Virus record (IMG/VR): IMGVR_UViG_3300009129_001089
Strand: one strand, 5' to 3'
DNA: 64,000 nt
From: a virus
The position numbers were made by a program, and so were the translations under genes. Below, one piece after another: positions 21,624-62,802 of the stretch; the stretch's first letter is position 1, and each line of letters opens with the position of its first letter. The notes under the pieces are model-generated. The model was not told the DNA's origin, made no database searches, and saw only the letters and a program-made list of their open reading frames with translations.

Positions 21624-22246
21624 TTGACATGTCCTACTTTAAGTGTTGGTATTACCTTTGGCTTAACGCCAGTTTTTTCATATACATTTCTTGCAAATAT
21701 TAAATCTTCTGCTACCCAAGTTGTTTCACCACTTGATCGTTCTATTTTAGGTACATAATAAAACGGAAATTCTAACTGTTGAATTAAACTGCTATGTATT
21801 TTCATGAAGCCTCCTGCAACATGATCTACTTCAAATATTTCTTTATGACTTAAAACTTCCTTTGGTGATAACAAAGTTGGTTCATCTTTCCAGTAACCTA
21901 CTAAACTAGTTTGATTATTAGGATTAAAAATATACCACCCGCTTACAAACTTTTCTTCCGAATACATTAATTCTTGCATTTGTTGCAAAGAAAATTTAAT
22001 ATCCGCATCTATAAAAATAAACCATTCTACTGTTTTTGCAAATTCGTATGGGTTAGATTGATTACCTTGTGTTAATAATTTGTTTCGGCCTTCAGTTTGG
22101 TTTGATGCAACCATACTAATAATTTTACCATCTTCGTTTTTGGCAAGCCATTCCTGAAAAGGTACCCATTGTTGAAACAATATATTAGGTACCATTTGTT
22201 GCCCTGACGGTATTAAAAATGCATATTTCATATTGTTTTTAACCAT
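21608..22246 (-). CDS. GT-A fold glycosyltransferase-like protein
   Basis: RN, FIDAD, GGFMKI, EDLIF, GH. Confidence 0.7.
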   Translation of the reverse strand: MVKNNMKYAFLIPSGQQMVPNILFQQWVPFQEWLAKNEDGKIISMVASNQTEGRNKLLTQGNQSNPYEFAKTVEWFIFIDADIKFSLQQMQELMYSEEKFVSGWYIFNPNNQTSLVGYWKDEPTLLSPKEVLSHKEIFEVDHVAGGFMKIHSSLIQQLEFPFYYVPKIERSSGETTWVAEDLIFARNVYEKTGVKPKVIPTLKVGHVKWVTI

Positions 22247-42433: not shown

Positions 42434-42996
42434 TTTATAAGTTGTTTAATTACATACGGATACATAAAATGTTCGACATAAGTGTGTATCATTTTTTTTA
42501 CTTCATCTAATGGCATATCTTGTAATTGCATTGCTCGTTGCTCAATTATTGCTCCGCCATCTACTTCTGATGTTACCCAATGTACAGTAGCACCAAATAC
42601 TGTACAACCATAATTGTATGCGTCTTCGATTGCATTTGTTGATCCTTTAAATGCGGGAAGCAAAGACGGGTGTATGTTAATTATTTTACCTGCCCATTTA
42701 TCACAAAACCAATGGGATAAAATTCGCATCCAGCCAGCAAGTACAATTAAATCAGGCTTAAACTTATCTGGTCCGGTACCCCCAAGTGCAAAGTCTATCT
42801 TTTTATCGTACTCTTCTCGTGTTTCCCCTTTATAATGTTTAATTAAACAAGAACTTACCCCAGCATCCTTTGCTCGGTTAATTACTCCTGCATTAGGATT
42901 ATTTGTAATTACTTGATCTACTTCTATATCATTATTAACAATGGCACTAAAATTTGAGCCTTCTCCAGAAGCCATTACTATTATTTTTTTACTCAT
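42430..42996 (-). CDS. purN: Phosphoribosylglycinamide formyltransferase
   Basis: SGEGSN, LAGWMRIL, INIHPSLLP, GATVHWV..VDGG. Confidence 0.95.
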   Translation of the reverse strand: MSKKIIVMASGEGSNFSAIVNNDIEVDQVITNNPNAGVINRAKDAGVSSCLIKHYKGETREEYDKKIDFALGGTGPDKFKPDLIVLAGWMRILSHWFCDKWAGKIINIHPSLLPAFKGSTNAIEDAYNYGCTVFGATVHWVTSEVDGGAIIEQRAMQLQDMPLDEVKKMIHTYVEHFMYPYVIKQLIK

Positions 42997-43022: not shown

Positions 43023-44348
43023 TCAGGCAAATCCCCGCAACTCGTAAGAAGTGCAAGGAGTACTAAAAACTTTATGAAATATGTAATCCACATTCTTTGT
43101 ATAATATCCTACATTAAAAATATCGTTTACTTCGTCCATAGATAAAACGTTATTTGCTATTAAATTATCTTTAAATGCGCCATCACCATGGGCGGCAGTT
43201 TGTACTTCTTTATACGCTTGTTCTCTTGTTAAGCCCTTATTATTAATTAAAAAGAGAAGAACTTGTTGAGAATAAACTAAACCGCCAGTAATATTCAGAT
43301 TTTCTTGCATTCGCTTTGTATTTACTTCCATATTTATAACAACTTTTGTAAGCCGTGTTAATGCAAATGATACATAAGAAAATGTATCAGGTAAAGTAAT
43401 ACGTTCGACACTTGAATGGCTAATATCTCTTTCGTGCCATAATGCTATATTATCTAATGATGGTGCGACTGCACTTTTTATAAGTCTTGCAAGTCCTGTT
43501 AAGTTTTCTGTTAATATAGGATTCTTTTTGTGTGGCATTGCACTAGAACCTTTTTGTCCTTTAGTAAATTGTTCTATTACTTCGCCTACTTCAGTACGTT
43601 GTAAATGTCTTATTTCAACTGCTAAGTTTTCTATACAGCCACCTATAATTCCTAAGTAACTCATTAATAACGCAAAACGATCTCGCGGAACAACTTGCGT
43701 ACTAACATCTTCAGCTAACATGCCAAGTTCGTCTGCTAAGTATTCTTCTATTTTTGGGTCAATAACAGAATAAGTTCCTACTGCTCCACTACATTTTACT
43801 CTACAAATATCATGTTCTGCCTGCTCCAATAACTTTAAGCATCTTTGAAATGCTCTGTAATGCCCTAATAATTTTAATCCAAACGTTGTTGGTTCTGCGT
43901 GTATACCATGCGATCTACCTACACATACTGTATTTTTATGATCTTCTGCTCGTTGTTCTAATACACTTACAATGCTTTTTAAAGCATCTTCTATAACAAT
44001 TAATGATTGTTTTATTTGCAAGGCATTGCAAGTGTCTAATAAATCTTGACTTGTCATGCCCATGTGTATATACTTTGCATTAGGACCTATCATATTAGAA
44101 CAATGGGTTAAAAACGCTAATACATCATGTTTAGTTGTCTTTTCTATTTCATTTATTTTTTCAACAAAATTTCCACTTTCAACACAAAGCCATCTGCATT
44201 TGCGTATATCGTTTACTGCTTCTTTAGGAATGTTTCCATATTTTGCTTGTGCTTCACAAACAATTTCCTCAATATCAAACCAATGTTGAAATCTACTTTC
44301 GTCTGACCAAATATTTTCTATATCAGGGCATGTATATCTTTTATGCAT
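43023..44348 (-). CDS. purB: Adenylosuccinate lyase
   Basis: KHDV, GRSHGIHAEP, GSSAMPHKKNP, WHERDISHS. Confidence 0.96.
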   Translation of the reverse strand: MHKRYTCPDIENIWSDESRFQHWFDIEEIVCEAQAKYGNIPKEAVNDIRKCRWLCVESGNFVEKINEIEKTTKHDVLAFLTHCSNMIGPNAKYIHMGMTSQDLLDTCNALQIKQSLIVIEDALKSIVSVLEQRAEDHKNTVCVGRSHGIHAEPTTFGLKLLGHYRAFQRCLKLLEQAEHDICRVKCSGAVGTYSVIDPKIEEYLADELGMLAEDVSTQVVPRDRFALLMSYLGIIGGCIENLAVEIRHLQRTEVGEVIEQFTKGQKGSSAMPHKKNPILTENLTGLARLIKSAVAPSLDNIALWHERDISHSSVERITLPDTFSYVSFALTRLTKVVINMEVNTKRMQENLNITGGLVYSQQVLLFLINNKGLTREQAYKEVQTAAHGDGAFKDNLIANNVLSMDEVNDIFNVGYYTKNVDYIFHKVFSTPCTSYELRGFA

Positions 44349-44952
44349 TAAAGTCTTCTAGTATTTTGAATCCGTCTTGTGAGCAATGATAAGTTTCAAA
44401 TGCTCGTTCCGGATGTGGCATCATACCTAATACATTATTATTACGTATTCCACAAATGCCCATTGTGGAACCATTTGGATTGTTTTTACGCAAATAATAT
44501 GAATATGCTACTTTTTGTTCTTCTACTAACTTTGCAGGGTTAGGGTGATAGTAATTACCTTCTGCATGAGCAATAGGTATTCTACGTTGATAGTGTACAG
44601 GCCAAGTAATTATATCCATTGGCTTACATATAAATTTTTCTGTACTGTTTATTCGTAACGTTCCTGGTAACAAACCTGCTTCACATAATATTTGAAATCC
44701 GTTGCAAATGCCTAGTATTTTTCTATCTGTTTTTTTAAGTTCTTTTATAACAGGACTAAGATTTGCTATTGCACCTGCACGTAAATAATCACCATAACTA
44801 AAGCCTCCTGGTATTACATACATATCAACTTTTGGTAATGTTGTTTCTTTGTGCCAGACACGTATAGGTTTAATTCCTGTATGTGCATACAAGAATCTTT
44901 CCATTTCATTATCGCAGTTACTACCTGGAAATATTATAATCGCTGTTTTCAT
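44341..44952 (-). CDS. purQ: FGAM synthase glutaminase subunit
   Basis: [31 protein letters not shown]. Confidence 0.96.
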
Positions 44953-46492
44953 AATTTTCTATTAATCCTACTCCACCTATTACTGGTGTTGGCATAATGC
45001 CTTTACCTAAAGTTTCGTTATAAAAACTTACATTACCACTAACAACCGGAAATTCTAATTCTTTACATATTTCTGCCATGCCTAAACATACTTCTTTAAA
45101 GTCATGCATAACATTTGGATTTTCCGGATTACCAAAATTTAAACAATTTGTTATACCTAACGGTTTTGCATTTACAGATAATAACTTATTATAACAATCA
45201 TATATAATATATCTAATCCCACTTCTAGGATTATAATGGCAAAATGGGGCACTACTCATAGTTGTCATTGCTATTGCTTTTTTACTATTTGGTATCCTAA
45301 CAATAGCAGGATCTGCTTGTGGTCCTTGTATTGTATTCCCTATTACTTGCGAATCATATTGCTCCCATACCCAATTCATATCAAAATCTGTTACTATAGG
45401 TATATCTATAAATTCTGATTTATAAGGCTCTACTGGTCGTTGTAATTCAGGTGCATCTAATGCTTCTAGTGGTACATCACATACTACTTTATCTTTAACA
45501 CGAACAGTATAATTATTTGTATCTGTTAGTGTTCCTATTTCGACATAATCTAAATCCCATTTATTAAATATACTTTCTACTTCTGCATCAGGATTTAAAA
45601 CAAATAACATTCGTTCTTGGCTTTCGCTTAAAAGTATCTCCCAAGGTTCCATTTTTTCTTCTCTTAAAGGAATTTTTGATATATCAATATCAATACCATA
45701 ATTTCCTTTAAGTGCTACTTCCGAAGTTGAAGAAAGTATACCTGCCGCACCCATATCCTGTGCCGCAATTACTGTGCCTGTTTCAAATAATTCTAATGAT
45801 GCTTCTAGTAATAGTTTTTCTTGAAATGGATCGCCTACTTGTACTGTAGGGCGTTTAACCTCACATTCAGTAAATTCCTCGCTTGCCATAATAGCACCAC
45901 CTATACCATCACGCCCTGTTTTAGCACCTACATAAACAACAATGCCTTTTTTATTTGGAATACTTGTAAATATTTCTTTATTAGTATAACCTACTGTCAT
46001 AGCATTTACAAGAGGATTTTCAGCATAACAATCAAAAAAATGGCATTTGCTACTAACAGTAGGAACCCCGACACAATTCCCATAATCAGCAATCCCTTTA
46101 ACCACTCCATCAATAACTCTCCTATCGTCTGTTGAACCAAAATGTAACGAATTTAAATTTGCAATAGGTCGAGCCCCCATTGTAAAAACATCACGCATGA
46201 TGCCGCCTACTCCTGTTGCGGCTCCTTGATAAGGTTCTATATAACTAGGATGATTATGACTCTCTATTTTAAAAACTAGTTTATCACCGTCACCTATATT
46301 GACTACACCTGCATTTTCACCAGGGCCAGATATGACTTGCTTGCCTTCAGTGTATAATTGTTTTAGCCAAAATTTAGAACTTTTATAAGAGCAATGTTCA
46401 CTCCACATTGCATCAAATACATGAGTTTCGGTTACGTTAGGTGCCCGACCTAATCTTTCGTCTATTAATTTTATTTCGTCATTCGTTAACAT
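44921..46492 (-). CDS. purL: FGAM synthase subunit PurL (short, 523 aa)
   Basis: [45 protein letters not shown]. Confidence 0.93.
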
Positions 46493-47135
46493 GTTTTTCC
46501 CAATTTACATAACTTAATTGTCTATCATTACCTAATTCTTTAGCAAATGTATTAAACGCCAAAGTGTATCTAATATCATTTTGCTGATTAATATTAACAG
46601 AATGCATTATATCTGATGGAAACATAATTAAGTCTCCATTGGTCATTGGTGCATCTACATATTCTGCATTCATACTATTATGGGTAGACTGTTGTAATTG
46701 AATCATAGGTAGATGCCTATTATAAAATTGCGTAGGAGGCATTGAGCTGGTTACATTTAAATAAAATATTCCACTAATAATACTATTTTGATGATGGTGC
46801 GTCGGATGGCCTGCCCCGGACTCATTTTTATTAACCCAAGAATTTGTAATAATCAATTCTGTTTTGGTAGAAATAACATCTATTGCATAATTTTTTATTT
46901 TTTCTTCAATCCAATTTTTAATTTTAGATAATTTTTTATGCCGTAATATGTACGAATCTTCTGTTTTACAATTTCCGTTATATGATCCTTCTTGTCTAAA
47001 TGGTAACTTTTGTATGTATTCAAATTCTTCATCATATGTATCAGGATATTTACTTACAAACATTGTAGTTGGAAAAACATGCAATATTGTATCATCGCCC
47101 TTAACAAATTTTGTTACATGATCTAATACATTCAT
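46479..47135 (-). CDS. 2OG-Fe(II) oxygenase (TIGR02466-like)
   Basis: SWVN, HHH.NS..SG..Y, FPS..MHSV, R.TLAFN. Confidence 0.88.
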
Positions 47136-47351: not shown

Positions 47352-47948
47352 TTAATAAATTTGTTCTATCTTATCGCATAATCCTAATTTTTTTGCTTCT
47401 TTAGCACCAAGCCAAACATCATGTGCAGGAAGTAAGTATTTTCTAATATCTGATTCTTTAAGACCAGTACATTTTTTATAATGATTGATCATACGCTCTG
47501 TTGTTAGTTCTAACTCTTTAACTCTAGCAAATAGTTCGTGTTCTTTTCCTATACTGCCCCATGAATATTGGTGCGATAAAATACTTGTGTTTGGTGTTAG
47601 AACTCGTCTACCTTTTGCACCAGTTATAAACATAAGTAATCCACACGAGGCAATCATGCCTAGTCCAACTGTTTTGATAGGAATTTTAGATCCTTTCATT
47701 ACATCTACTAATGCAAAACATGCATTAAGATCTCCGCCTCTAGAACATATACCTAATGTCAATTCTTTTTGCTTTTTTGGTTTATAATTTTCTGCAAGTA
47801 TCCAGTCAATTAACGGACTCATTGATTCTACTGTAACATCACCCATAAAAACCACTACACCATTCATTAATAGTTCCATTTTAGGAACCATTGCTTCAGG
47901 ACTTGACGGTCCTTGGGGAACTCCTTGATCTTCGTCTTCGTTTCTCAT
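47352..47948 (-). CDS. clpP: ClpP-like protease
   Basis: CSRGG, IASCG (catalytic Ser), SHQ, D.WL.A.EA...GL.D. Confidence 0.88.
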   Translation of the reverse strand: MRNEDEDQGVPQGPSSPEAMVPKMELLMNGVVVFMGDVTVESMSPLIDWILAENYKPKKQKELTLGICSRGGDLNACFALVDVMKGSKIPIKTVGLGMIASCGLLMFITGAKGRRVLTPNTSILSHQYSWGSIGKEHELFARVKELELTTERMINHYKKCTGLKESDIRKYLLPAHDVWLGAKEAKKLGLCDKIEQIY

Positions 47949-47957
47949 TTTATTCCT

Positions 47958-49001
47958 TTAAAATATTTTATTTTGTTGATTGTTTACCATTACAAAGGTT
48001 GTACATTTTGGAATATCTTTTATTCTTCTTGCACCAATCATTGTACATGCACTTCTAAGTCCGCCTAAAATATTTTTTACTGTATCTCTAACAGGCCCTC
48101 TTGAATCCATTGTAACTCGTTTACCTTCTGTACTAGTATAGCCATCTTTTCGAGATCCATGCACTTCTTTTGCACGATCAGAACTCATGCCGTAAAATTC
48201 ATATTTTCCATCTTGTTTTGGTAAATCGCATTCATCATGAAATGCCAGCATACCTCCTAACATAACAAAGTCTGCTCCCGCTCCAAATGCTTTTGTTATA
48301 TCACCCGGAACAGTACATCCACCATCTGCAATTATATATCCCCCCAAACCATGTGCGGCATCTGCACATTCCATTACTCCACTTATTTGTGGCATACCTA
48401 CTCCGGTTTGCTCTCGTGTTGTACATACACTACCTGGACCTATACCACATTTAACCACATCTGCACCCGATATACATAATTGCTCGGTCATTTCTCCAGT
48501 AATAACATTACCTGCAATTATAATTTTATCAGGAAAATCATCTCGTACTTTAACAACAAAATCTGCAAAATTTTGCTGATAACCATTTGCTACATCTATA
48601 CAAATAAATTTAACTTCTGGCCATTCTGTTAATACTGCTTTTGCAGTAGCATAATCTGTTGCGTTGTCGTCCCAAATAGCATTGGTACCTGTACTAACTA
48701 CTACATTATTTAAACGTAATCCTTTACTTGCCGCTTCTTTCCAGTCATCAAATGAATAATGCTTTCTAATTGTAGTAAGCATATTAAACTCTTGCAGTAC
48801 CATTGCCATCGAAAATGTACCTACCCCATCCATGTTTGATGACATAATAGGAGTACCTGCCCATTTTTGGGAAGATTCGTCCCAATGCCTAAACGTAAAC
48901 TCTCTTTCTAAGTTTATACTTCGTCTACTAGATATTGTAGAACGTTTAGGTTGTAATAATACATCTGAATAATCTAATTTTATTTCAGTGTCTACTCTCA
49001 T
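47958..49001 (-). CDS. guaC: GMP reductase
   Basis: SNMDGVGTF, DVANGY, GIGPGSVCTTR, FYGMSS, GGLRSACT. Confidence 0.93.
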   Translation of the reverse strand: MRVDTEIKLDYSDVLLQPKRSTISSRRSINLEREFTFRHWDESSQKWAGTPIMSSNMDGVGTFSMAMVLQEFNMLTTIRKHYSFDDWKEAASKGLRLNNVVVSTGTNAIWDDNATDYATAKAVLTEWPEVKFICIDVANGYQQNFADFVVKVRDDFPDKIIIAGNVITGEMTEQLCISGADVVKCGIGPGSVCTTREQTGVGMPQISGVMECADAAHGLGGYIIADGGCTVPGDITKAFGAGADFVMLGGMLAFHDECDLPKQDGKYEFYGMSSDRAKEVHGSRKDGYTSTEGKRVTMDSRGPVRDTVKNILGGLRSACTMIGARRIKDIPKCTTFVMVNNQQNKIF

Positions 49002-49420
49002 TATGCACCATATGGCTGTTCAAAGTTTATTATGTCTAGGATACGTTTTGCGTATAATGCGGCATTAATTGCACCATGCTTGCCAACTGACATACATGCA
49101 ACTGGTACACCTTTTGGCATTTGTACTATACTTAGTAAACTATCAATACCCATTAAATCACTTTTCATTGGTACACCTATTACTGGTAAATTTGTTTGGG
49201 ATGCAACCACACCTGGCAATGCGGCAGACATTCCTGCGGCCGCAATAATAATTTTATATCCGGATGCTTCCCATTTTTTAATATACTCGGTTACTTTTTC
49301 TGGATTTCTATGTGCAGATGCAGTAACTATTTCATTGCCGATATTTAATTCGTTTAATTTATCAACGCAATTATTCATCGTCTCTAGGTCGCTGTCGCTT
49401 CCCACTATTATTCCTATCAT
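49001..49420 (-). CDS. purE: PurE (N5-CAIR mutase/AIR carboxylase)
   Basis: GSDSD, SAHR, PVIGVP, SIVQMPKGVPV. Confidence 0.95.
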   Translation of the reverse strand: MIGIIVGSDSDLETMNNCVDKLNELNIGNEIVTASAHRNPEKVTEYIKKWEASGYKIIIAAAGMSAALPGVVASQTNLPVIGVPMKSDLMGIDSLLSIVQMPKGVPVACMSVGKHGAINAALYAKRILDIINFEQPYGA

Positions 49421-49922: not shown

Positions 49923-50531
49923 TTAATATTCTGCAACAAAAATGTGATACTTTATAATGGTATATATAAATCCTATAAAAAAGATCCCCATACCAATTTC
50001 ATGTAATTTTTTACTATTACTGAATATCATTGGAGTCATAATGCAAAGCATAAGAACTCTACCTATTACTTTCAATGACATTAATTCTCCTTTAAAGAAT
50101 ACAAAGAGATTTGCAAGTAGACAACATTGTAATGCTACTGCCAATCCTAAAATAACCTTATGGTTTTCGTAATAGTATTCACATAAATCAACCGATTTAT
50201 CTTTATATGTCTCCGGTTGTGGAGCAACTACTTCAGTTACCATAAAAAATATTAATGGTACTGAAAGATATAAAAGAAACGTAAATAAATTCCAATCTTC
50301 ATTTGAAAAATATGCTAAGTCTCTTAGTGGATACGAAGTCCACCAAAATAATATAATAGTAAAAAAAGTTATAAAACTAAAAGCCGTATGTGGCCAATAG
50401 AAATAAACATCATCGTCTGGATTATCATTGTAATTTTTTGCTAATAATGAACTGTAATTTATCATTAACCTAACCATAGACATGGCTAAAACTACAAAGG
50501 GTATCATAGATAAATGTGAAAATGCGACCAT
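49923..50531 (-). CDS. Multi-TM membrane protein
   Basis: About six hydrophobic helices. Confidence 0.75.
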   Translation of the reverse strand: MVAFSHLSMIPFVVLAMSMVRLMINYSSLLAKNYNDNPDDDVYFYWPHTAFSFITFFTIILFWWTSYPLRDLAYFSNEDWNLFTFLLYLSVPLIFFMVTEVVAPQPETYKDKSVDLCEYYYENHKVILGLAVALQCCLLANLFVFFKGELMSLKVIGRVLMLCIMTPMIFSNSKKLHEIGMGIFFIGFIYTIIKYHIFVAEY

Positions 50532-51470
50532 TCATTTTTCCTCCAACTCGCCTAAAATAAGATGTTCAGTTAATACATTACTTAAATACTGCCATTCACT
50601 ATCTTCTGGAACAATTATAACCATTCCTACACCGCAATTAAATGTTTTCATCATTTGTTTTTTAGTTAAGTTTGCCTCTGCTTGTATCCATTGAAACAAA
50701 CTTTCGTGTCTAAAAAATCTAGTCTCATTTGATTTATTGCCACTTTTTACAGAATGATATAATCTATAATTACATACTAAGTTCTTTGGTAATATTCTTT
50801 TTGTATTAGTATGACCACCTCCTGTTATATGTGCTATTCCTTTTATTTCTATACCTGCTTCTTTAAGTGCATCCAATTCTTTTTTATATATTTTTGTTGG
50901 CTCAAGCAACGAATACATAAATTCTTTTTCGTCTACGTTATTCGGAGTTTTATGTGCATATTCTCGTATCATTGTGTAACCATTAGAGTGAAATCCTGTA
51001 GAAGGCAAACCTATTACTTTATCTCCTGGTTGCATATTATTTTTAGGCAATTGATCCATTGATATACCTACACCAAATCCGCAAACATCAAATGTACCTT
51101 GTTCAATTATGCCAGGCAACTCAGCAGTCTCGCCTCCTACTAATTCTATTCCTACTTGAGAACATCCAAAATATATTCCTTCTAATACTTCTTTAAAATC
51201 TTCCTCGTTAACATTTGCTGAACAAAAATAATCCAAAAAGAACAACGGTTCACATCCATTACATAATAAATCATTAATAACCATTGCTACACAATCTACT
51301 CCTATTGATTGCAACGGCCTACCATATTTTTCCTTTGCTTGTTGTGCTAATAGTATCTTTGTTCCAACACCGTCACAACTTGAAATAAGATTGCCATGCC
51401 TAGCCGCAAAGCCTCCTATCTGTTCTGAATATTGTGAAATACTTTTAACTAGTTTATCATTTTTATTCAT
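50532..51470 (-). CDS. purM: AIR synthetase
   Basis: DGVGTK, PLFFLDY, GGETAE, HSNGY, HITGGG, FNCGVG. Confidence 0.95.
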   Translation of the reverse strand: MNKNDKLVKSISQYSEQIGGFAARHGNLISSCDGVGTKILLAQQAKEKYGRPLQSIGVDCVAMVINDLLCNGCEPLFFLDYFCSANVNEEDFKEVLEGIYFGCSQVGIELVGGETAELPGIIEQGTFDVCGFGVGISMDQLPKNNMQPGDKVIGLPSTGFHSNGYTMIREYAHKTPNNVDEKEFMYSLLEPTKIYKKELDALKEAGIEIKGIAHITGGGHTNTKRILPKNLVCNYRLYHSVKSGNKSNETRFFRHESLFQWIQAEANLTKKQMMKTFNCGVGMVIIVPEDSEWQYLSNVLTEHLILGELEEK

Positions 51471-51477
51471 TATTACC

Positions 51478-53025
51478 TTATTCCCATTCTATTGTTCCTG
51501 GTGGCTTAGAAGTTATGTCGTAAACTACTCTATTTACTCCTGATACATTATTAATAATTTCAGTAGAACATTTACTAAGCACTTCATGTGGTAAATTAAA
51601 CCAATCAGCAGTCATACCATCTTCACTTGAGACTGCTCGTAATGCAATAAGATTTTCGTATGTTCTATCATCGCCCATTACACCTACTGTTTTAATAGGT
51701 ATCAAAACTGCAAATGCTTGCCAAATACCTTCGATATCACCTAACGTCTTTAAAAATACACTATCTGCCTCACGTAATATTCGTAATCTTTCATGTGTTA
51801 CTTCGCCCATTATTCGTACTGCTAGTCCTGGTCCGGGAAATGGCTGGCGGGTTAAAACAGTATCTGGCAACCCTAATTCTTTGCCCAATAATCTTACTTC
51901 ATCTTTAAATAAATTCCTAAGTGGTTCAATTAAAGTAAATTCCATATTGTCGGGTAATCCACCTACATTATGGTGCGACTTAATTGTTGCCGCTATATCT
52001 TTTCCTGATTCAATAACATCAGGATACAATGTACCTTGTGCTAAAAACTTTGCATCCTTTGTAACATCTTCAAAGCATCTAATAAATTCTCTTCCAATTA
52101 CTTTTCGTTTAACTTCCGGATCAGTAATGTTTTCTAATACTTTCCAAAACCTTTGTGTAAAATCATACTTTGTAATGTTTAATCCTAGCTCTTGCATGGA
52201 TTTCATTATTTCGTTTGCTTCGTTTTTACGAAGTAACCCTGTATCAATAAAAACACATTTTGACTGTTTACCTATTGCTTTGTGTAATAATTTTCCTACT
52301 ACTGCGGAATCAACTCCTCCACTAATTGCAGTTATAACTTCTCCATCACCTACTTGTTCTCTTATAGATTTAATAGCATCTTCAATAATATATTTTGAAA
52401 TCCAATCTTTATCACATTGTGCTACTTTAAATAAAAAGTTTCTAAATACATCTCTTCCAATAAGTGAATGTACTACTTCCGGATGAAATTGTACTCCGTA
52501 AATAGGTTTTTCTTTATGCTTAACCGCCGCTATAACATTGTTAGAAGATCTTGCTATAATATCAAATACTTTTGGTAATGTTTGTATTTCATCTGCATGA
52601 CTCATCCATACTTGGGCTCCTTCTATCCAATCTTTGTCACATTCTGCTAATAATGGATCTGGCTTTTCTACGTATATGTTTGCAAGTCCGTATTCGCCTG
52701 TGCCACGAATAATTTTTCCGCCTTCTTTGTGTACTATTTCTTGTAAGCCATAACATATACCTAAAATAGGAATACCTAAGTTTAAAATATCAGGATCTAA
52801 CTTAGGTGCTTCGGTTTCGTATACACCTGATCTGCTTCCTGATAATATTATTGCTTTAGCATTTTTTAATTCTTCTGCTTTAACAGACGGAGCATATATT
52901 TTGGAATAAACATTTTGTTCTCTAACTCTCCTGGCAATGAGTTGTGTATATTGGGCACCAAAATCTATTACTGCTACAGGATTATGTGTGTACTTTGCTC
53001 CAAAATCTATTACCGCGACTGTCAT
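51478..53025 (-). CDS. guaA: GMP synthase (glutamine-hydrolysing)
   Basis: GICYG, QFHPEV, SGGVDS, KSHHNVGGLP, KPPGTIEWE. Confidence 0.97.
   Translation of the reverse strand: MTVAVIDFGAKYTHNPVAVIDFGAQYTQLIARRVREQNVYSKIYAPSVKAEELKNAKAIILSGSRSGVYETEAPKLDPDILNLGIPILGICYGLQEIVHKEGGKIIRGTGEYGLANIYVEKPDPLLAECDKDWIEGAQVWMSHADEIQTLPKVFDIIARSSNNVIAAVKHKEKPIYGVQFHPEVVHSLIGRDVFRNFLFKVAQCDKDWISKYIIEDAIKSIREQVGDGEVITAISGGVDSAVVGKLLHKAIGKQSKCVFIDTGLLRKNEANEIMKSMQELGLNITKYDFTQRFWKVLENITDPEVKRKVIGREFIRCFEDVTKDAKFLAQGTLYPDVIESGKDIAATIKSHHNVGGLPDNMEFTLIEPLRNLFKDEVRLLGKELGLPDTVLTRQPFPGPGLAVRIMGEVTHERLRILREADSVFLKTLGDIEGIWQAFAVLIPIKTVGVMGDDRTYENLIALRAVSSEDGMTADWFNLPHEVLSKCSTEIINNVSGVNRVVYDITSKPPGTIEWE
52944..53020. 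repeat. 42-bp-period tandem duplication at the guaA 5' end
   Basis: VAVIDFGAKYT HNP VAVIDFGAQYT. Confidence 0.85.
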
Positions 53026-54191
53026 AATGCTTTATATCCAATATCCTTTCGATAAAAACTATCTTCCCAATGTATTTTTTCACATATTTGATATGCTTTA
53101 TTTCGTGCTTCTTGTAATGTTTCTCCTCTAGCAGTTATATTTAAAACTCTACCACCTTTTGTAATATATCTATCATCTATTTTTTGAGTACCTGCATGAA
53201 ACACTTGTACATCAGGATCATCTATTTTATCTAAACCTTTTATTTCAAATCCCTTACCATATTTTTCTGGATAACCTCCTGAACACATACAAACAGTTAT
53301 CGCAGATCCATTGTAAAAATTAGGTGCCGGTAACTCTTTTAATGTACCATTAACACATGCTTCTAAATATGGAGACAAATCACTCTCCATTAACATCATT
53401 AATACTTGACATTCAGGATCACCAAAACGTACATTGTATTCTATTACATATGGATCTCCATTGCAAATCATTAAACCAATATATAATACACCTCTGTAAG
53501 GGATACCTTCTTCTCGCATTCCCCTAAGTGTTGGTTCGATTATTTCTCTTCTAATTCTTGTGTCTAGTTCATTTGTTATTAATGGTGCTGGTGCGTATGC
53601 ACCCATTCCTCCTGTGTTAGGTCCAGTATCTCTTTCACCTACACGTTTATGATCTTGACAATAAGGAAGTACTTTATAATCTTTTCCATCTGTTAATACA
53701 AAACAACTTGCTTCGTCGCCTTGTATAAATTCTTCTATTAATATTTTATTTGATTTAGACTCAAATTTATTATCAATAAATGTTTGTTGAACATTAATAG
53801 CATCCTCTAATGCATCACAAACTGATACACCTTTTCCTCCGCATAATCCGTCCTCTTTAATAACAATAGGAAATTTTTCATTAGGACGCATTATTGCTTC
53901 TTCTATTGTTGATCGATTATATGTTTCCCATCTTGCAGTAGGAATATCATTACGAAGCATAAATTGTTTCGCCCATAATTTACTTGTTTCTAATCGACCC
54001 GCAAGTTTACTTGGAGCAAATACTTTTTTAAGCATACCTTCATAATGCTCAGTAAGTCCGTCTGCTATAGGTTGTTCTGGTCCTATAATAACAAATTCCG
54101 AATTTTCTTTAATCGGAATGCTTTCTTTTTCCAATTTCCAACGTAAGGAATCTTCTCTTCCTCCGTCGCCTATCATAATAGTCGAAATCAT
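53022..54191 (-). CDS. purD: GAR synthetase
   Basis: GGRE, IGPE, GKGV, QDHKR..DTGPNTGGMG, EYNVRFGDPE. Confidence 0.96.
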   Translation of the reverse strand: MISTIMIGDGGREDSLRWKLEKESIPIKENSEFVIIGPEQPIADGLTEHYEGMLKKVFAPSKLAGRLETSKLWAKQFMLRNDIPTARWETYNRSTIEEAIMRPNEKFPIVIKEDGLCGGKGVSVCDALEDAINVQQTFIDNKFESKSNKILIEEFIQGDEASCFVLTDGKDYKVLPYCQDHKRVGERDTGPNTGGMGAYAPAPLITNELDTRIRREIIEPTLRGMREEGIPYRGVLYIGLMICNGDPYVIEYNVRFGDPECQVLMMLMESDLSPYLEACVNGTLKELPAPNFYNGSAITVCMCSGGYPEKYGKGFEIKGLDKIDDPDVQVFHAGTQKIDDRYITKGGRVLNITARGETLQEARNKAYQICEKIHWEDSFYRKDIGYKAL

Positions 54192-55696
54192 GCTACCTGT
54201 TGTTTATATCTGAGTGTGCCTTCTTGTGTAGGATATTTAGATGTTAAACATGCCATACAAAGTTCACTACTATTTTTATTTAACGCTTTTACCATACCCT
54301 CTAACGACAAATATTGTAAACTATCTGCACCAAAATCGCTTGCTTTAGGTTTATTAGTACTTGTGTATAATTCTTTTATAGTTGGAAAATCTATTCCATA
54401 AAAACAAGGCGAAGTAATAGGAGGACATCCAATTCGTAAATGTACTTCTTTTGCTCCGCTCCATTCTTTTAAATTTGTTACTAATGCTCGCATTGTTGTA
54501 CCACGTACAATAGAATCATCTATAAGTATAATTTTTTTACCCCGTAATACCTCACGCAAATGTGTAAATTTTAATTGTATATTGTATGTTCTATTTGTAT
54601 TATCTATAAATGTTCTTCCTATAGAATGATTTTTAAGTAAGCCTTGTACAAAAGGTATATGGGTTTCTTGTGCATATTTTGCTCCTGCAACATACGAAGT
54701 TTCAGGTACAGGTACTACAATATAATCACCGTTAAATTTAACTGTTTCTTCTATTGCTAATTGTTTTCCTATATTTTCTCGTACATGATATACAGATTCG
54801 CCATCCATTACAGATGCAAGATGCCCAAAATAAATCCATTCAAAAAAACAATAACTAGTATTTTTTTTAGAATGTGTTTCTATTAATTTACTTGGACCAG
54901 AATAATATAAACTATTACTTGGATATTGTAAATCCTTATCTATATAACTTTTTACAGTAAAATTATCGCCATCAGCAATAATCATTTCACCGGGTTTCAA
55001 ATCTGTTGCTTCTATTTGTAAATTAGAGAGAACTACGCTTTCTGATGTAAAAACTAATATGCCATCATCAGTAACACCATAACACATAGGTTTTAGCCCT
55101 AGTGGATCTCTGACAGCAACCATTTTCCCGTCAGCATTTACAAAGGCAATGTTCCATGATCCGTCAAAATCTTTTAATAACGTTTTAAATATTTCAACAA
55201 AGTTTAATTCTTCTTGAGGCTTATGTGATTGGACTTCACGACTAAGAAAATGCATTATGACTTCTGTATCAGAATCATAAGTCATATTGTAACCTACTTT
55301 TTCTAAGCCACTTTTTAGTTTATCATAATTTGCTAGGTTGCCATTAAAGGCTAAACTAAACCATTTTGATTTTCTACCATGTGGACGTTCAAATGGTTGT
55401 GCTAATTGATCTCCATTATCACCACTTGTTGCATAACGAGTGTGACCTATTGCGGCATGACCACTATAATCTTCTAATAATTTTTTACTTTTATATTGAT
55501 GGTTGATTTGAAATACTTCGTGTACTTTACCATTGTCTTTATGTGTTTGGAGTATTCTCTTTCTATTTTGATTGTAAGAAGTAAGACCGGCACTAAGTTG
55601 ACCCCGGTGTTGTAAATCTAATAATCCTCTAACAATGAGGGGGTAAACGTTTTTGGTTTTATCCTTTAACGAATACGCCCCAATAACTCCACACAT
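54188..55696 (-). CDS. purF: Amidophosphoribosyltransferase
   Basis: MCG N-terminus, LQHRGQ, GHTRYAT, DDSIVRGTT, CFYGID, C..C. Confidence 0.96.
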   Translation of the reverse strand: MCGVIGAYSLKDKTKNVYPLIVRGLLDLQHRGQLSAGLTSYNQNRKRILQTHKDNGKVHEVFQINHQYKSKKLLEDYSGHAAIGHTRYATSGDNGDQLAQPFERPHGRKSKWFSLAFNGNLANYDKLKSGLEKVGYNMTYDSDTEVIMHFLSREVQSHKPQEELNFVEIFKTLLKDFDGSWNIAFVNADGKMVAVRDPLGLKPMCYGVTDDGILVFTSESVVLSNLQIEATDLKPGEMIIADGDNFTVKSYIDKDLQYPSNSLYYSGPSKLIETHSKKNTSYCFFEWIYFGHLASVMDGESVYHVRENIGKQLAIEETVKFNGDYIVVPVPETSYVAGAKYAQETHIPFVQGLLKNHSIGRTFIDNTNRTYNIQLKFTHLREVLRGKKIILIDDSIVRGTTMRALVTNLKEWSGAKEVHLRIGCPPITSPCFYGIDFPTIKELYTSTNKPKASDFGADSLQYLSLEGMVKALNKNSSELCMACLTSKYPTQEGTLRYKQQVA

Positions 55697-56929
55697 TTAA
55701 AATTGCTCGTCTTCTGTTGACCCTTTAATTGCACTTAATGTATTACTACCAGTACATACTTGACTTATTTCGTCAAAGTAACCTGCACCTACTTCACGTT
55801 GGTGTTTTACTGCTGTAAATCCTAATTCTTGTGCTTTAAATTCTTTTTGTTGTAAATCTACAAATCCTGTCATACCAGTATTTTTATAATTTAAAGATAA
55901 ATCAAACATACTATAATTTAAACTATGAAAACCTGCGAGTGTAATAAACTGATATGTTACTCCTAGTTCGCCTAGTTCATCTTTGAAATTGCGTATTTCA
56001 GTATCGCTTAATTTTGACTTCCAATTAAATGATGGTGAACAATTATATGCAAACATTTTATTTGGAAACTCCTTACGAATTTCTGCACAAAATTCCCTGC
56101 ATTCGCCTATGTCGGGTAAAGATGTTTCCATCCAAAGCAAATCACAGTAAGGCGCATATGCAAGTCCTCTTGAAACCGCTTGTGCCATTCCTGCATTTGT
56201 TTTATAAAATCCTTCGGTTGTTCTTTCACCTGTAATAAACGTATGATCATATTCGTCAGCATCAGTTACTAACAATGCACCTGCTAATGAATCTGTTCTT
56301 GCAATTAAAACAGTATCAACGCCCATTATATCTGCGGCAAGTCTAGAAGCAATAAGTTTTGATACCATTTCTTTAGTAGGTACTAACACTTTACCACCCA
56401 TGTGTCCGCATTTTTTAGCAGAAGATAATTGGTCTTCTAAATGCACACCGGCGGCACCGGCTTCAATCATGTCTTTCATTAATTCATGGGCATTAAGGAC
56501 TCCTCCGAATCCTGATTCCATGTCTGCAACAATAGGAAGAAAATAATCTATATCTCCTTCACCTTCCATTGTTTGTATTTGATCTGCACGGATAAACGTA
56601 TTATTAATTCGTTTTACTACGATTGGTACACTATTGGCCGCATATAATGATTGATCTGGATACATCTCCATACTATCATTTGCATCGCCTGCTACTTGCC
56701 AACCACTAAGATATACCGAATCTAACCCAGCCTTTGCTTGTTGCATTGCTTGGTTACCTGTTAATGCACCTAAGGCACTAACGTAAGGTTGATTGTGTAA
56801 TTTGTGCCATAACTTTTTAGCACCATTTTGTGCTAATGTATATTCAACTTTAACTGACCCACTTAGTCGCTTTACGTCTGAGTCGGCATATGGTCGGATA
56901 ATCCCGTCCCATCTATTTTCTTTGCTCAA
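55697..56929 (-). CDS. aceA: Isocitrate lyase
   Basis: [47 protein letters not shown]; TTG start with AGGAG SD. Confidence 0.97.
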
Positions 56930-56940
56930 TTTTTATCTCC

Positions 56941-57783
56941 TTAAAATTTGCTTGTATACTCTGTCACGATAGCATACTTTCGTTGAACATCAGTTAAATT
57001 TTCTCCGTCTCTAAATGATTGTTTATCTAATTGTTGTTTTGGATCGCCATGTGGCCATATACGCCAACTATCATTATCTATAACGTCTGCAATAACAATT
57101 TCTTTATTTGAATTAATACCTACTTCTATTTTCATATCTATTAAATCTACATTAACTTTTTTCCATGCTTTTTCTATTGTTTCAAAACATGGTATCATTA
57201 ATGAATTTCTAATATATTCTAATGTTACAGGATCTACTACAGGTATTATGTCCATTAATGGTTGCATATCATGTCGTGGTTGCTTAGGAGGATAAAGTAA
57301 CCACGTTTCATCATGTGGTTCTATTAAAGGGTCTGTGTATACAGTTTCTGTCCATTCTCCGTTTCGTAGGTATAATTCTCGAGCTTTATCTTCAGAAATC
57401 ATTTCACCTTTAACTATTGCATGTTTATGAAAAAATTCAGTTTTTACAGGATCAAATAAATCTGAAGAGGATGCTTGAGGTTCTCGTTTAATATAACTAC
57501 CATATGGCCTTCTACGTATAACACATTCAATAGGAATCATTCTACATTTATCTGCAACAAATGATGTTTCGTCATTTCTGCTTTTATATGCAACTGGTAT
57601 TCCTTCACGTTTCAGTAACGCAAATACATGAATTGTCTGGCTTGTTTTATCTTGTGCTACAGGTAGGTCTGCTTGTATTGCGGCATCATTTGCCGTAAGT
57701 GAATCTTTTGTTCGTATTCTAACTAAACTTTTATCATCTAAGGATTCTATTAGTTTAGTTTTACCTTCAATTAGTATTTCCAT
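56941..57783 (-). CDS. purC: SAICAR synthetase
   Basis: EGKTK, MIPIECVIRR..GS, D.KIE.G, ADVIDNDSWRIW, DKQ.FR. Confidence 0.92.
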   Translation of the reverse strand: MEILIEGKTKLIESLDDKSLVRIRTKDSLTANDAAIQADLPVAQDKTSQTIHVFALLKREGIPVAYKSRNDETSFVADKCRMIPIECVIRRRPYGSYIKREPQASSSDLFDPVKTEFFHKHAIVKGEMISEDKARELYLRNGEWTETVYTDPLIEPHDETWLLYPPKQPRHDMQPLMDIIPVVDPVTLEYIRNSLMIPCFETIEKAWKKVNVDLIDMKIEVGINSNKEIVIADVIDNDSWRIWPHGDPKQQLDKQSFRDGENLTDVQRKYAIVTEYTSKF

Positions 57784-57990: not shown

Positions 57991-58410
57991 CTAAATAAAT
58001 TTCGGATCACCGTAGTCGACAAGACCTGACCAATGTGCTTTTGTCGAAAATGTAGGTTTTAATTCATGTTCTCTATCCATTAACGTATATGCAACTTTTT
58101 CAGGTTCCATTATGTTTAGGTGTTGCAAAACGTCATGTTTACTAAACTCTGCACAACTATATACATCAAATTGTACTAATGCTGGATCTGTTTCATCCCA
58201 TATGTGAATAGCAATATGTGATGTTTCAATCATTACAAATCCTGTAATTCCTCTATTTCCACATACATCAATGTAACTAGCGAAAGGCCCTTTGATAATT
58301 TTCATATCAATTAATTTAACTAGTTGTTTAAGCCATTTCTTTAATACTTTTTCTTCTTTAATTGGTTTAGTAACTTCAGCTCGAACCAATAAATGTTTGT
58401 GTACCGGCAT
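57991..58410 (-). CDS. speD: S-adenosylmethionine decarboxylase proenzyme
   Basis: HLL, G.TG...IETSHIAIH.W, DVYSC. Confidence 0.88.
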   Translation of the reverse strand: MPVHKHLLVRAEVTKPIKEEKVLKKWLKQLVKLIDMKIIKGPFASYIDVCGNRGITGFVMIETSHIAIHIWDETDPALVQFDVYSCAEFSKHDVLQHLNIMEPEKVAYTLMDREHELKPTFSTKAHWSGLVDYGDPKFI

Positions 58411-59447: not shown

Positions 59448-59524
59448 TGGTAGGGATGACTGGATTCGAACCAGCGACCTCTACATCCCAAATGTAGCGT
59501 TCTCCCAGACTGAACTACATCCCT
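59448..59524 (-). tRNA. tRNA-Pro(TGG)
   Basis: TTTGGGA loop, CCA. Confidence 0.92.
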
Positions 59525-60117
59525 GGATAAACAAAGAATGTGACTGTCAATCTATCAGTTCCTGCGCCTTCGGCACTATGTACCAATTTTGCATTATACA
59601 TAATCATTCTATTAAATTTATTTTCAATTATACTAGTTTTTTCAAAACTAGTTTTATCTATCATATTAACATTTGTTGGCATTTCTGTGCTTCCGTCCCA
59701 GCCTGTTTCTTTATGCTTATAAAAACAAGTACCTGTATCAGGAGCAGGATTATTATCTAAATAAATTACACCTGCTAGAACTGGATTACCATCTTGATGT
59801 ATATTTCGTTCATCATTTTTTGTTTGTCGTTGAAACAATGCATTTATAGTTATATTATCATTTGGTATTAATGCTAATATTTTTTTTTGAAATTCTTTAT
59901 ATATTTTAGGTAAAATATTTTCACATAATAATGATCGTTGTCCTGGAAATGTCATTCCTATTTTAAGAATTTCTAATATTTTATTATCATTATCTTCGTC
60001 TATTGTTGCTGTATTACTCAACTGATCGCAATAATAAAAATCTTGTTTTAATGCTTCTTCTCTAACATTATTAGGGTCATCAAAAAAATTATCATATACA
60101 GTAATAATATTTTTCAT
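59515..60117 (-). CDS. DUF6445-like 2OG-Fe(II) oxygenase
   Basis: DNFFDDP..VR, FPGQRS, IHQD, GT.FY, NKFNR, HS, RLT; stop codon inside tRNA-Pro. Confidence 0.85.
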   Translation of the reverse strand: MKNIITVYDNFFDDPNNVREEALKQDFYYCDQLSNTATIDEDNDNKILEILKIGMTFPGQRSLLCENILPKIYKEFQKKILALIPNDNITINALFQRQTKNDERNIHQDGNPVLAGVIYLDNNPAPDTGTCFYKHKETGWDGSTEMPTNVNMIDKTSFEKTSIIENKFNRMIMYNAKLVHSAEGAGTDRLTVTFFVYPGM

Positions 60118-60635
60118 TTGTACACACCTAATATTAAAGTTAATCTTTCATTACCTGCTTCCTCTGCTCTATGTACAAGGTTACCGTTATACATAATCAT
60201 TCTATTAAATTTATTTTCTATTACACTTGTTCTGTTAAAATCGGACCCTATTAAAACTTCTATACTATCTGGTTTTTTGGTACTACCATCCCATCCTGTT
60301 TCTTTATGAGTATAAAAACCTGTACCACTATTTGGCATAGGAGTTTCATCTAAATATACTATACATGTTAAAAATGTATCAACGTCTTGATGTATTTTTC
60401 TATAATCATTTTTTCCTTGTTTTTGAAACCTAGCAGTTATTGTTGAATTTTTAGGTATTAATGGTTCTAAGGACAATTTTAATTCTCTATACATCTCTGG
60501 TAAAATATTTTTACATTGGTCTGTTCGTATTCCAGGATAATTTCCTAATTGATCAAAGGTTTGTTCTAATGCTTTCTTTCGAATTTCGTTGGGATGCATA
60601 AAAAAATCATCGTATACTATTAATCTATAATCCAT
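60114..60635 (-). CDS. DUF6445-like 2OG-Fe(II) oxygenase
   Basis: YPGIRT, IHQD, NKFNR, HR, RLT. Confidence 0.85.
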   Translation of the reverse strand: MDYRLIVYDDFFMHPNEIRKKALEQTFDQLGNYPGIRTDQCKNILPEMYRELKLSLEPLIPKNSTITARFQKQGKNDYRKIHQDVDTFLTCIVYLDETPMPNSGTGFYTHKETGWDGSTKKPDSIEVLIGSDFNRTSVIENKFNRMIMYNGNLVHRAEEAGNERLTLILGVYK

Positions 60636-61300
60636 TATGCTAATTTAAATATAAAAGATGTTTGTGTTAATCTACAATTTTCCTTAGTATCCCCAAAACA
60701 AGTTCCAGGAGCATGTAATAATTTACTATCATATAATACAATTCTATTAAAGGTATTTCCGACTACAGAGTCTACTTCAAAATTATCCTTATTTTGGTCT
60801 TGCCTATTCGCAGGATATATATCGTTAAATGCTAGATCTGGTACTCTATCTTTGTTTATGCCATTCCATCCTGTCTTTTTATGTGAATAAAATATAGTAC
60901 CACTATTAGGTCCGGGGTTAGGTGTTAAGTAAACAATAATGGCCATAATAGGATCTGTATCTTGATGAATACTTTTATTAACATTATCATGATCTTTAGT
61001 TTGTAATGTAAAATATGTATCTACTTCTAATTTAGTTTCATCACTAAACTTACAATATTGGTTCACAAAAGTTCGAGTATATTCATCTGCTTCAGGTAAT
61101 ATTTTACTAGCTCGTATTGTTCGTTCACCACAAAAATTTCCTATTTTAGATATCTCAACAACATCATCATTATCTAATTCTTCTGTTCTAATTGTATCAT
61201 GCAAATAATCTGCAGGATAAAATTCCTGTTTTAATAATTTATTTCTAATTAGAAATGGATCTGGGTAAAAATTTTCATATATAATTGAATTTAATCTCAT
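60635..61300 (-). CDS. DUF6445-like 2OG-Fe(II) oxygenase
   Basis: ENFYPDP, IHQD, SGTIFY, NTFNR, LHAP..FG, RLTQ. Confidence 0.85.
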   Translation of the reverse strand: MRLNSIIYENFYPDPFLIRNKLLKQEFYPADYLHDTIRTEELDNDDVVEISKIGNFCGERTIRASKILPEADEYTRTFVNQYCKFSDETKLEVDTYFTLQTKDHDNVNKSIHQDTDPIMAIIVYLTPNPGPNSGTIFYSHKKTGWNGINKDRVPDLAFNDIYPANRQDQNKDNFEVDSVVGNTFNRIVLYDSKLLHAPGTCFGDTKENCRLTQTSFIFKLA

Positions 61301-62088: not shown

Positions 62089-62143
62089 TATTTATAGGAC
62101 TGACTTCTATAACTAGTATAACATCTATAATTATTGAAGTCAA
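62089..62143 (-). promoter_or_regulatory. Tandem sigma70 (TTGACT-17-TATACT, extended -10) and TATAAATA late motif upstream of the tRNA region
   Basis: Motifs read at 62115-62143 and 62089-62096. Confidence 0.65.
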
Positions 62144-62802
62144 TCGGTTAATGGAGGAAAGTTGGGTATATTATCGGAAAAAACAAAATAGTCTCCGTTA
62201 AATAACCAACGGTTATAAACATCTTTTATTTCATTTGTACCATGTAATAGGTATGCAGGAAATAAAAAAAGATCACCTACGATTGGTTGACATTCATATT
62301 CATGTCGCCATTCGCAAGTGTATTCAAGGGCATTCCAAGGAAATAGTCCTTTTGGTCCATTATATATAGGACTTAAAAACCATAAACTAGGGAGAGTACC
62401 CTCTAAATGAAAATAATATGTATAACTAAATAATGCACCTTCGTGATCATGCAATCCTGAACCTGTACTATTGCCAAAATTTAAGAATGCACTTGTTTTT
62501 TTTATTTGTTGGTAGGTTGTATCAATTTGTAAATCCTTAATAAACTTGTCTGCACTTTCGTCAATAAAGTCAAATACTTCTTTAAAGACAGGATTTTTAA
62601 ATTCTTTTCCGTATGTAGGTGAGTTGGTCCAAAACCGTTTTTGAACAGAAGTGTATCCTTTATAATTTACATTTGCCCCATGTTCAAATGGGACATCAGG
62701 ATCCATTGTTCTTTTGGCTTCGTCTAATATTTGTTTATGAAAAGATTTGTCTTTATTAATATTAGTGTGATAAATCTTATGTGGAAATATTTGATGTATC
62801 AT
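62140..62802 (-). CDS. 2OG-Fe(II) oxygenase (TIGR02466-like)
   Basis: HDH, SYTYY, FPAYLLH, R..FN. Confidence 0.82.
   Translation of the reverse strand: MIHQIFPHKIYHTNINKDKSFHKQILDEAKRTMDPDVPFEHGANVNYKGYTSVQKRFWTNSPTYGKEFKNPVFKEVFDFIDESADKFIKDLQIDTTYQQIKKTSAFLNFGNSTGSGLHDHEGALFSYTYYFHLEGTLPSLWFLSPIYNGPKGLFPWNALEYTCEWRHEYECQPIVGDLFLFPAYLLHGTNEIKDVYNRWLFNGDYFVFSDNIPNFPPLTD

Follow-up and report, generated by a model that had tools for sequence, protein, structure and literature searches.

Isocitrate lyase within a phage purine gene block

The viral DNA analysed here (the window; 64,000 nucleotides, positions 24824-88823 of the 109,853-bp IMG/VR virus record IMGVR_UViG_3300009129_001089) carries a gene for isocitrate lyase (ICL) packed between the purine biosynthesis genes purC and purF. 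The gene lies on viral DNA with virus genes on both sides and belongs to a phage-only ICL clade, the purine linkage of which is recurrent and was found in at least four gene orders. We prefer, with about even confidence, the reading that the phage ICL is an auxiliary metabolic gene giving a carbon-conserving supply of precursors for purine nucleotide production by the phage. The gene in question was located as follows.

55697-56929, minus strand: isocitrate lyase, aceA-type, 410 aa, TTG start, KKCGH catalytic loop (Pfam, NCBIfam, PDB alignment)

The predicted protein matched Pfam PF00463 with an expected value of 1.5e-100 and 337.7 bits (cut-off 26) and passed both NCBIfam equivalogs for ICL, NF011645 with 689.8 bits (cut-off 562) and TIGR01346 with 544.8 bits (cut-off 275.9). 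Residues 4-410 aligned with residues 16-423 of 7cmx, the best solved ICL (589 bits), and the C-terminal end was ...KGSTEDEQF. The KKCGH loop was intact in the translation, aligned with the loop of 7cmx and was present in all 137 of the 137 ICL homologues extracted. The fold family, the KKCGH loop and the conserved C-terminus are common to the window ICL and bacterial AceA (E. coli/Salmonella type; 7cmx, 3i4e, 1igw, 1f61). The two are also of the same length class (410 aa against ~430 aa) and the identity to Salmonella AceA was ~60%, with an N-terminus ~15-20 residues shorter in the window ICL. Unlike bacterial AceA, the window ICL is phage-borne, falls in a phage-only clade and lies inside a purine operon and not beside aceB. 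Judged from its sequence, the gene is predicted to encode a catalytically competent enzyme that splits isocitrate to succinate and glyoxylate.

That the protein is in practice another member of the ICL/PEP-mutase superfamily (PEP, phosphoenolpyruvate), for example a methylisocitrate lyase, is very improbable. A weak secondary Pfam match to PEP_mutase was found and the NCBIfam prpB models matched at 84-99 bits, but these prpB scores were far under their cut-offs (~353-354 bits) whereas both ICL equivalogs were passed. Methylisocitrate lyases have the loop KRCGH, which is not the loop of the window protein. The strong end-to-end homology to solved ICLs and the ~60% identity to E. coli-type AceA also argue against another function.

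Gene order and junctions

The genes of the block that surrounds ICL, from upstream to downstream, were as follows, with a further purH-like region given last.

57991-58410, minus strand: speD-like AdoMet (S-adenosylmethionine) decarboxylase (Pfam), upstream of purC, order kept in L186-L193
57767-57982, minus strand: orf71, conserved upstream of purC, order kept in L186-L193
56941-57783, minus strand: purC (SAICAR synthetase), directly upstream of ICL (Pfam PF01259 SAICAR_synt, 3.4e-36)
56930-56940, minus strand: purC-ICL spacer, 11 nt, with a ribosome-binding site (GGAG) 7 nt upstream of the ICL TTG (read from sequence)
54188-55696, minus strand: purF (amidophosphoribosyltransferase), product starting with MCG (Pfam GATase_6/7 and Pribosyltran)
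53022-54191, minus strand: purD (GAR synthetase, the glycine-consuming step), 4-nt overlap with purF (Pfam GARS_N/A/C)
51478-53025, minus strand: guaA (GMP synthase) (Pfam GATase and GMP_synt_C)
50532-51470, minus strand: purM (Pfam AIRS/AIRS_C)
49923-50531, minus strand: orf202, conserved 202-aa gene in the operon (copies near ICL in L018, L019 and L026)
49001-49420, minus strand: purE (Pfam AIRC, 4.3e-50)
47958-49001, minus strand: guaC (GMP reductase) (NCBIfam NF003470, 481.4 bits, cut-off 397; Pfam IMPDH family)
47352-47948, minus strand: clpP
46479-47135, minus strand: 2-oxoglutarate (2OG) oxygenase
44921-46492, minus strand: purL (Pfam)
44341-44952, minus strand: purQ (Pfam)
43023-44348, minus strand: purB (Pfam)
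42430-42996, minus strand: purN (Pfam)
20679-22246, minus strand: purH-like genes (AICARFT part and an upstream 212-aa open reading frame, ORF), 20 kb from the operon (PF01808, 2.6e-65, at window 20895-21641)

From 58410 down to 42430 the order is speD-like, orf71, purC, ICL, purF, purD, guaA, purM, orf202, a weak HAD-like ORF, orf72, purE, guaC, clpP, 2OG oxygenase, purL, purQ, purB and purN. These genes and the surrounding large ORFs are all on the minus strand. Within the block, neighbouring genes overlap or are separated by gaps of 0-26 nt, except for 216 nt between clpP and the 2OG oxygenase gene. At the upstream junction GGAGATAAAAA separates the purC TAA from the ICL TTG, an 11-nt gap with a Shine-Dalgarno sequence, while at the downstream junction the purF ATG abuts the ICL TAA with zero gap. 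The first-pass annotation had placed an aceA gene with an intact KKCGH loop between purC and purF, with no gap to the purF ATG; the Pfam matches, the translation and the sequence of the junction agreed with both statements.

A promoter/terminator scan of 41-60 kb gave no terminator-like site on the coding strand between purC and purF, and its hits showed no excess over shuffles. With no excess in the scan, it is the gene packing by itself that suggests co-transcription and co-translation of ICL with the phage purine genes.

Isocitrate lyase neighbourhoods in other phages

Relatives of the window ICL were found at 35 loci in IMG/VR, and hundreds more at ≥79% identity in a metagenome protein collection. 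Purine genes stood beside ICL in four orders. Order A, speD-orf71-purC-ICL-purF-purD, was shared by the window and seven contigs from independent ENA and JGI samples (L186-L191, L193). Their ICLs were 84-95% identical to that of the window and the zero gap between ICL and purF was kept. Order B was found in T4-like myophages (L012-L014, L194-L196) as gp13-gp14-gp15-small terminase, followed further on by lipase-ICL-purC-(VOC protein)-purS-purL-purQ-purM-purE; related ICL contigs bear the T4 gp13, gp14, gp15 and small terminase genes. Order C (L192) read GMP-reductase family-purM-ICL-phosphoribosyltransferase, with junctions that overlapped or abutted. In order D (L006-L010, L021-L026, L029, L036), ICL was flanked by purine uptake and salvage modules containing a PnrA/Bmp-type nucleoside-binding protein, a 377-aa NCS2-like permease, APRT-subfamily (adenine phosphoribosyltransferase) and XPRT-like (xanthine phosphoribosyltransferase) transferases and a GMP-reductase-family gene.

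The enrichment was calculated on the non-redundant IMG/VR loci with any purine gene ≤10 kb of ICL, with the expectation taken from the other genes of the same loci. ICL was within two genes of a purine gene in 11 of 12 loci compared to 4.2 expected (Poisson-binomial P ~3e-5), and with one representative per arrangement in 6 of 7 compared to 2.6 expected (P ~0.01); these P values are indicative only, as the loci are related to each other. A short ORF after ICL in L006-L010 (117-139 aa, ~36% identity) was considered as a purC, but the SAICAR_synt profile, run at record level, did not support this. The count is unchanged by this, because the positive loci among L006-L010 count via other purine genes.

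One gene family of the salvage modules, c7 (L006:8264-9397; homologues in L009, L010, L021-L024 and L026), encodes a 377-aa protein with no Pfam match, for which the Atlas feature search returned NCS2/guanine permeases with scores of 0.97-0.98. It is followed immediately by an APRT-like transferase and has a PnrA/Bmp-type binding protein to one side, which in some loci is the next gene. The c7 locus appears to be a phage-borne set of genes for taking up and salvaging purines, in T4-like marine phages. Searches of PHROGs, NCBIfam and PDB gave nothing for the neighbours c7, c26, c27, c29, c48, c49, c52, orf202 and orf266.

Phylogeny and selection of the phage isocitrate lyases

In a maximum-likelihood tree of 90 ICLs, the window ICL was placed in a monophyletic clade of 20 rows (SH-aLRT 100, stem length 0.41), consisting of 18 viral-collection contigs including the window and 2 contigs from metagenome-assembled genomes (MAGs). 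The cellular ICLs compared were ≤67% identical to the window ICL, the closest being those of Wenzhouxiangella and Burkholderiales, and the best alphaproteobacterial ICL reached 66%. SAR11-like ICLs (SAR11 label inferred; locus GC 29-31%) showed 55-57% identity and branched apart from the phage clade. A blastn search of the locus against cultured phages gave only short 70% matches to bacterial aceA.

Two higher matches carried bacterial labels and were rejected as cellular homologues. The 78% match assigned to 'Chloroflexota' (L039, PAAV01000031.1) was near-identical to viral L007 and the 73% match assigned to 'Acidimicrobiaceae' (L040, PBYV01000043.1) was identical to viral L025. Because of this, L039 and L040, which have a GC content of 33-36%, are probably phage contigs mis-binned into bacterial MAGs.

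The median dN/dS was 0.11 over 295 pairs within the main viral ICL clade, and ICL is thus maintained by selection in phages. The GC content at third codon positions was 0.22 for ICL and 0.14-0.26 in the neighbouring genes, and ICL matched the phage codon usage. Taken together, the viral clade, the low dN/dS and the neighbour-like third-position GC make the gene look, from its sequence, like an old phage gene under purifying selection and not a recent host fragment.

Two more viral ICLs were independent acquisitions in the tree, one in L027/L028 and one in Phage C48C1. The latter (L001:11992-13233, OQ984149.1, CDS0055; Kyanoviridae; cultured or complete) is annotated as hypothetical. Its ICL is intact, was 49% identical to that of the window, has the KKCGH loop and sits on a long separate branch.

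Partner genes and the fate of glyoxylate

Malate synthase (PF01274) was absent from the whole 109,853-bp record, which extends an absence that the first-pass annotation had reported for the window. The same profile was found in 0 of 33 ICL-bearing viral records, including the complete genome of Phage C48C1; most of these records are fragments, which by themselves do not demonstrate absence from a whole genome. A complete glyoxylate shunt module, with malate synthase encoded together with ICL, was therefore not seen in any of them. A phage glyoxylate aminotransferase, another gene that the first-pass annotation had proposed to look for, did not appear either, as class V and class I/II aminotransferases (Aminotran_5, Aminotran_1_2) were found in 0 of 28 ICL-bearing viral records, classes III and IV not being searched. 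Serine hydroxymethyltransferase, GcvT and FolD (PF00464, PF01571, PF02882) were absent from the window's record, which CheckV estimated at 37% of the genome. Neither the aminotransferase nor the one-carbon (C1) enzymes of a self-contained glycine/C1 module were thus found to be phage-encoded in these searches. Since malate synthase and aminotransferases of these classes are both missing from what the phage supplies, host enzymes would decide the fate of the glyoxylate.

Proposed supply of purine precursors

In the preferred reading, the phage would make ICL together with its own purine enzymes (speD-orf71-purC-ICL-purF-purD-guaA-purM and onwards), and during infection the enzyme would cleave host isocitrate to succinate and glyoxylate. 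The C4 units, namely succinate and the malate formed by host malate synthase, could pass through oxaloacetate to aspartate for PurC and PurA, a route consistent with the purC adjacency in orders A and B and with salvage towards AMP (adenosine monophosphate). C4 units could also pass via PEP to ribose-phosphate and phosphoribosyl pyrophosphate (PRPP) for PurF and the phosphoribosyltransferases. The PRPP route is consistent with the ICL-purF and ICL-phosphoribosyltransferase junctions (orders A, C and D) and with a phosphoenolpyruvate carboxykinase (PEPCK) gene in L186 and L187; a search of the window's record for PEPCK and purA found neither. Finally, a host with a suitable transaminase may convert the C2 unit glyoxylate into the glycine that PurD needs. 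This last route fits orders A and B only; purD with ICL was found in order A and in L012 of order B. In a SAR11-type host, the three routes would not be mutually exclusive.

The PEPCK gene mentioned above is short (408 aa), of the PEPCK_ATP family, and lies in the metabolic-gene island just upstream of speD-purC-ICL (L186:1979-3205 and L187:538-1764) in contigs with ICLs ~94-95% identical to that of the window. At another locus, a 349-aa glutamine synthetase gene (L017:79-1128) overlaps the ICL start by one base. That such further genes of central metabolism share the islands with ICL counts in favour of the preferred reading.

The first-pass annotation had gone further and proposed that ICL supplies purine precursors by feeding glycine and C1 units and does not run a glyoxylate cycle. 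In that explanation, a host aminotransferase turns the ICL glyoxylate into glycine for PurD and glycine cleavage yields formyl-tetrahydrofolate for PurN and PurH, which would relieve a bottleneck in a glycine-auxotrophic host such as SAR11. As a dedicated function we consider it unlikely. It draws on order A, where purF alone separates ICL from the downstream purD, on the lack of malate synthase in the ICL-bearing viral records, and on published SAR11 physiology. The route from AceA through glyoxylate and AspC to glycine has been proposed for Candidatus Pelagibacter ubique (PMC3870248), in SAR11 a glycine riboswitch controls the malate synthase gene glcB (PMC5069720), and in strain HTCC1062 glycolate can replace glycine via glyoxylate (PMC6775983). 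In addition, one study reports ICL in viruses assigned to Pelagibacter (PMC10721903).

The glyoxylate node of SAR11, with AceA, riboswitch-controlled GlcB and an AspC-like aminotransferase, is a precedent for a split of glyoxylate between malate and glycine and has the host logic that a glycine model needs; it is a host system, however, and the phage ICL branches elsewhere. If the glcB riboswitch is glycine-activated, as Tripp et al. 2009 reportedly found, malate synthesis would draw on glyoxylate while glycine suffices, and at low glycine the glyoxylate would be spared for making glycine. By rough calculation, a ~290-kb genome contains ~2.9e5 purines, each requiring one glycine and two C1 units, and tens of progeny would take about as much glycine as the entire protein of a small cell. 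This demand makes the bottleneck quantitatively plausible in an auxotroph, and the putative glycine route for the window ICL is plausible. The fullest form of this explanation is that the phage-only clade is a dedicated precursor enzyme of purine modules, and that in glycine-auxotrophic hosts such as SAR11 an AspC-like enzyme would make glycine for PurD while riboswitch-controlled malate synthase takes the overflow, removing a host bottleneck; we regard it as improbable, to the same degree.

Several results speak against a dedicated glycine feed, among them the lack of class V and I/II aminotransferases in the ICL-bearing viral records and of the three C1 enzymes in the window's record. Moreover, of the 28 IMG/VR records with ICL, most of them short fragments, only 2 had purD, and ICL was attached equally often to modules for purine uptake and salvage, in which no glycine is used. 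Phage operons for purine synthesis that include purD are also commonly without ICL (L152, L153, L155, L157), and sequence gave no link to SAR11, the identity to SAR11-like genomes being 55-57% for ICL and 48% for guaA. Of the first-pass proposal, the part that stood was a bona fide ICL packed with pur genes, lacking a malate synthase partner and recurrently adjacent to purine genes, together with the published SAR11 route; the dedicated glycine/C1 feed was not supported by the phage gene content, the salvage contexts or the variable slot described below.

Variability of the purine linkage

A number of observations weigh against the preferred reading that ICL supplies purine precursors. No purine gene was recognised ≤10 kb of ICL in 14 of 26 non-redundant IMG/VR loci, including L004 (radical-SAM paralogs and a VOC protein), L016/L018 (a carbamoyltransferase) and L017 (the glutamine synthetase gene noted above); ICL was likewise without purine neighbours in L020. 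From the purine side the link was weak, as ICL was in the flanks of 0 of 8 purF-bearing and 2 of 29 purC-bearing IMG/VR loci. The slot between purC and purF was empty in L152 and L162, where the two genes abut, and in L151 and L160 it held a saccharopine-dehydrogenase-like gene, although the purC and purF of these four contigs are as similar to those of the window as are the purC and purF of ICL-bearing contigs. With a variable slot, ICL could owe its position to an insertion hot spot within a metabolic-gene island. The identities of ICL and guaA gave no host signal: for neither gene were SAR11-like genomes nearer than other bacteria, and window guaA reached at most 55% identity among the alphaproteobacteria sampled and 48% with the SAR11-like G118. 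Finally, co-transcription, the direction of flux and the precursor that matters are inferred. The survey of viral aceA neighbourhoods for pur genes, suggested in the first-pass annotation, cut both ways: purine genes are frequent immediate neighbours of ICL, while many ICL loci have none and purC or purF loci rarely have ICL. With purine-free ICL loci, a weak link from the purine side and a variable slot, ICL is an optional add-on that prefers purine modules and not a fixed part of them.

In the relatives without ICL, a saccharopine-dehydrogenase-like slot gene and a tryptophan 2,3-dioxygenase-like gene before purC were observed (L160:11129-12175, L162:9447-10007). Given the nearby speD, the slot gene is possibly a carboxy(nor)spermidine dehydrogenase.

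The same variability favours another explanation, in which ICL is a generic booster of the glyoxylate shunt that uses host malate synthase and its location between purC and purF is incidental, in a permissive slot. Such a booster could save carbon, reduce NADH or iron demand, or complement hosts without aceA. We consider this possible, if somewhat doubtful. The empty or differently occupied slot with similar purC and purF identity and the ICLs without purine neighbours are in its favour. So is the earlier literature, in which aceA of viruses is assigned to the shunt or to anaplerosis (PMC4053976, PMC5332604, PMC10721903, bioRxiv 10.1101/2025.02.27.640493). The distribution of the shunt genes in SAR11 also fits, as ICL is patchy in subclade IIIa and was missing from those freshwater IIIb/LD12 genomes that were examined (PMC10030771; PMC5029164). 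Malate synthase is common in all SAR11 subclades according to one of these two studies (PMC10030771), while the earlier one reports that subgroups IIIa and IIIb lack the two shunt genes (PMC5029164). Evidence against an incidental location comes from purine adjacency in four orders and two phage types (T4-like and PA5oct-like jumbo), above that of other genes of the same loci, and from a zero-gap coupling of ICL to purF that was kept down to 84% ICL identity.

Comparison with known phage genes

Phage ICL as an auxiliary metabolic gene is already known. Viromes from the Pacific Ocean contain aceA and aceB (PMC4053976), an aceBA operon has been described in a T4-like marine viral genome (PMC5332604), and 98 huge phages had 98 ICL and 22 malate synthase genes (bioRxiv 10.1101/2025.02.27.640493). 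On these preprint counts, most ICL-bearing huge phages lack malate synthase, like the phage of the window. In these reports ICL is an auxiliary metabolic gene often found in large marine phages, as it is here; in the passages covered it is linked to carbon or energy metabolism and not to purine genes, whereas the ICLs described here lie in or beside purine de novo or salvage modules. Within the limits of these passages, the purine genomic context of phage ICL is previously undescribed.

T4-like cyanophages carry the purine genes purM, purN, purL, purC, purS and purH, and in both these islands and the window purine genes are clustered in metabolic islands of marine myoviruses. The cluster of the window is far more complete, with purF, D, N, L, Q, M, E, C and B, the H-like genes, guaA, guaC and a central-carbon enzyme. 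ICL is not known from the cyanophage islands.

Virome and huge-phage surveys had recorded phage ICL as a shunt or anaplerotic gene, usually without malate synthase and with no stated reason for this. Here, members of one phage-specific ICL clade recur inside de novo and salvage modules for purines, in marine phages that are AT-rich and abundant. Tapping of the tricarboxylic acid cycle for nucleotide precursors would be a testable reason for an ICL without malate synthase. If the glycine branch were true, the virus would repair a host auxotrophy to build its own DNA, and the cycling of glycine, glycolate and C2 compounds in the surface ocean would be connected with viral infection.

Other genes of the phage and its relatives

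The window has a GC content of 33%. A 292-kb metagenomic contig carries an ICL protein identical to that of the window, which suggests a jumbo-size genome. Virion structural proteins in the window had PHROG matches and were ~40% identical to those of PA5oct-type jumbo phages.

Within the purine block, orf71 was considered as PurS and rejected, as it showed no similarity to the PurS of L194 and no Pfam match. The Pfam IMPDH label of the gene at 47958-49001 was not accepted as IMP (inosine monophosphate) dehydrogenase, since the IMP dehydrogenase models failed and the GMP reductase equivalog passed. The presence of guaC and guaA in one phage is consistent with conversion of G nucleotides to IMP and AMP for an AT-rich genome. 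The copies of orf202 near ICL in the three contigs listed above were 79-80% identical; no Pfam, PHROG or NCBIfam match was found for it, and Atlas gave only hypothetical viral clusters and one bacterial cluster.

At least five paralogs of the 2OG-Fe(II) oxygenase/DUF6445 type were found around the purine block (window 59515-61300, 62140-62802 and 46479-47135, minus strand). Besides clpP, the window encodes a 732-aa ATPase of the ATP-dependent protease type (14213-16411). In L193, a polyketide-synthase-type gene of at least 1684 aa (L193:1-2281, minus strand; ketoacyl-synt, acyltransferase and PP-binding domains) lies on the opposite strand and adjoins the 2OG-oxygenase/speD/purC/ICL block.

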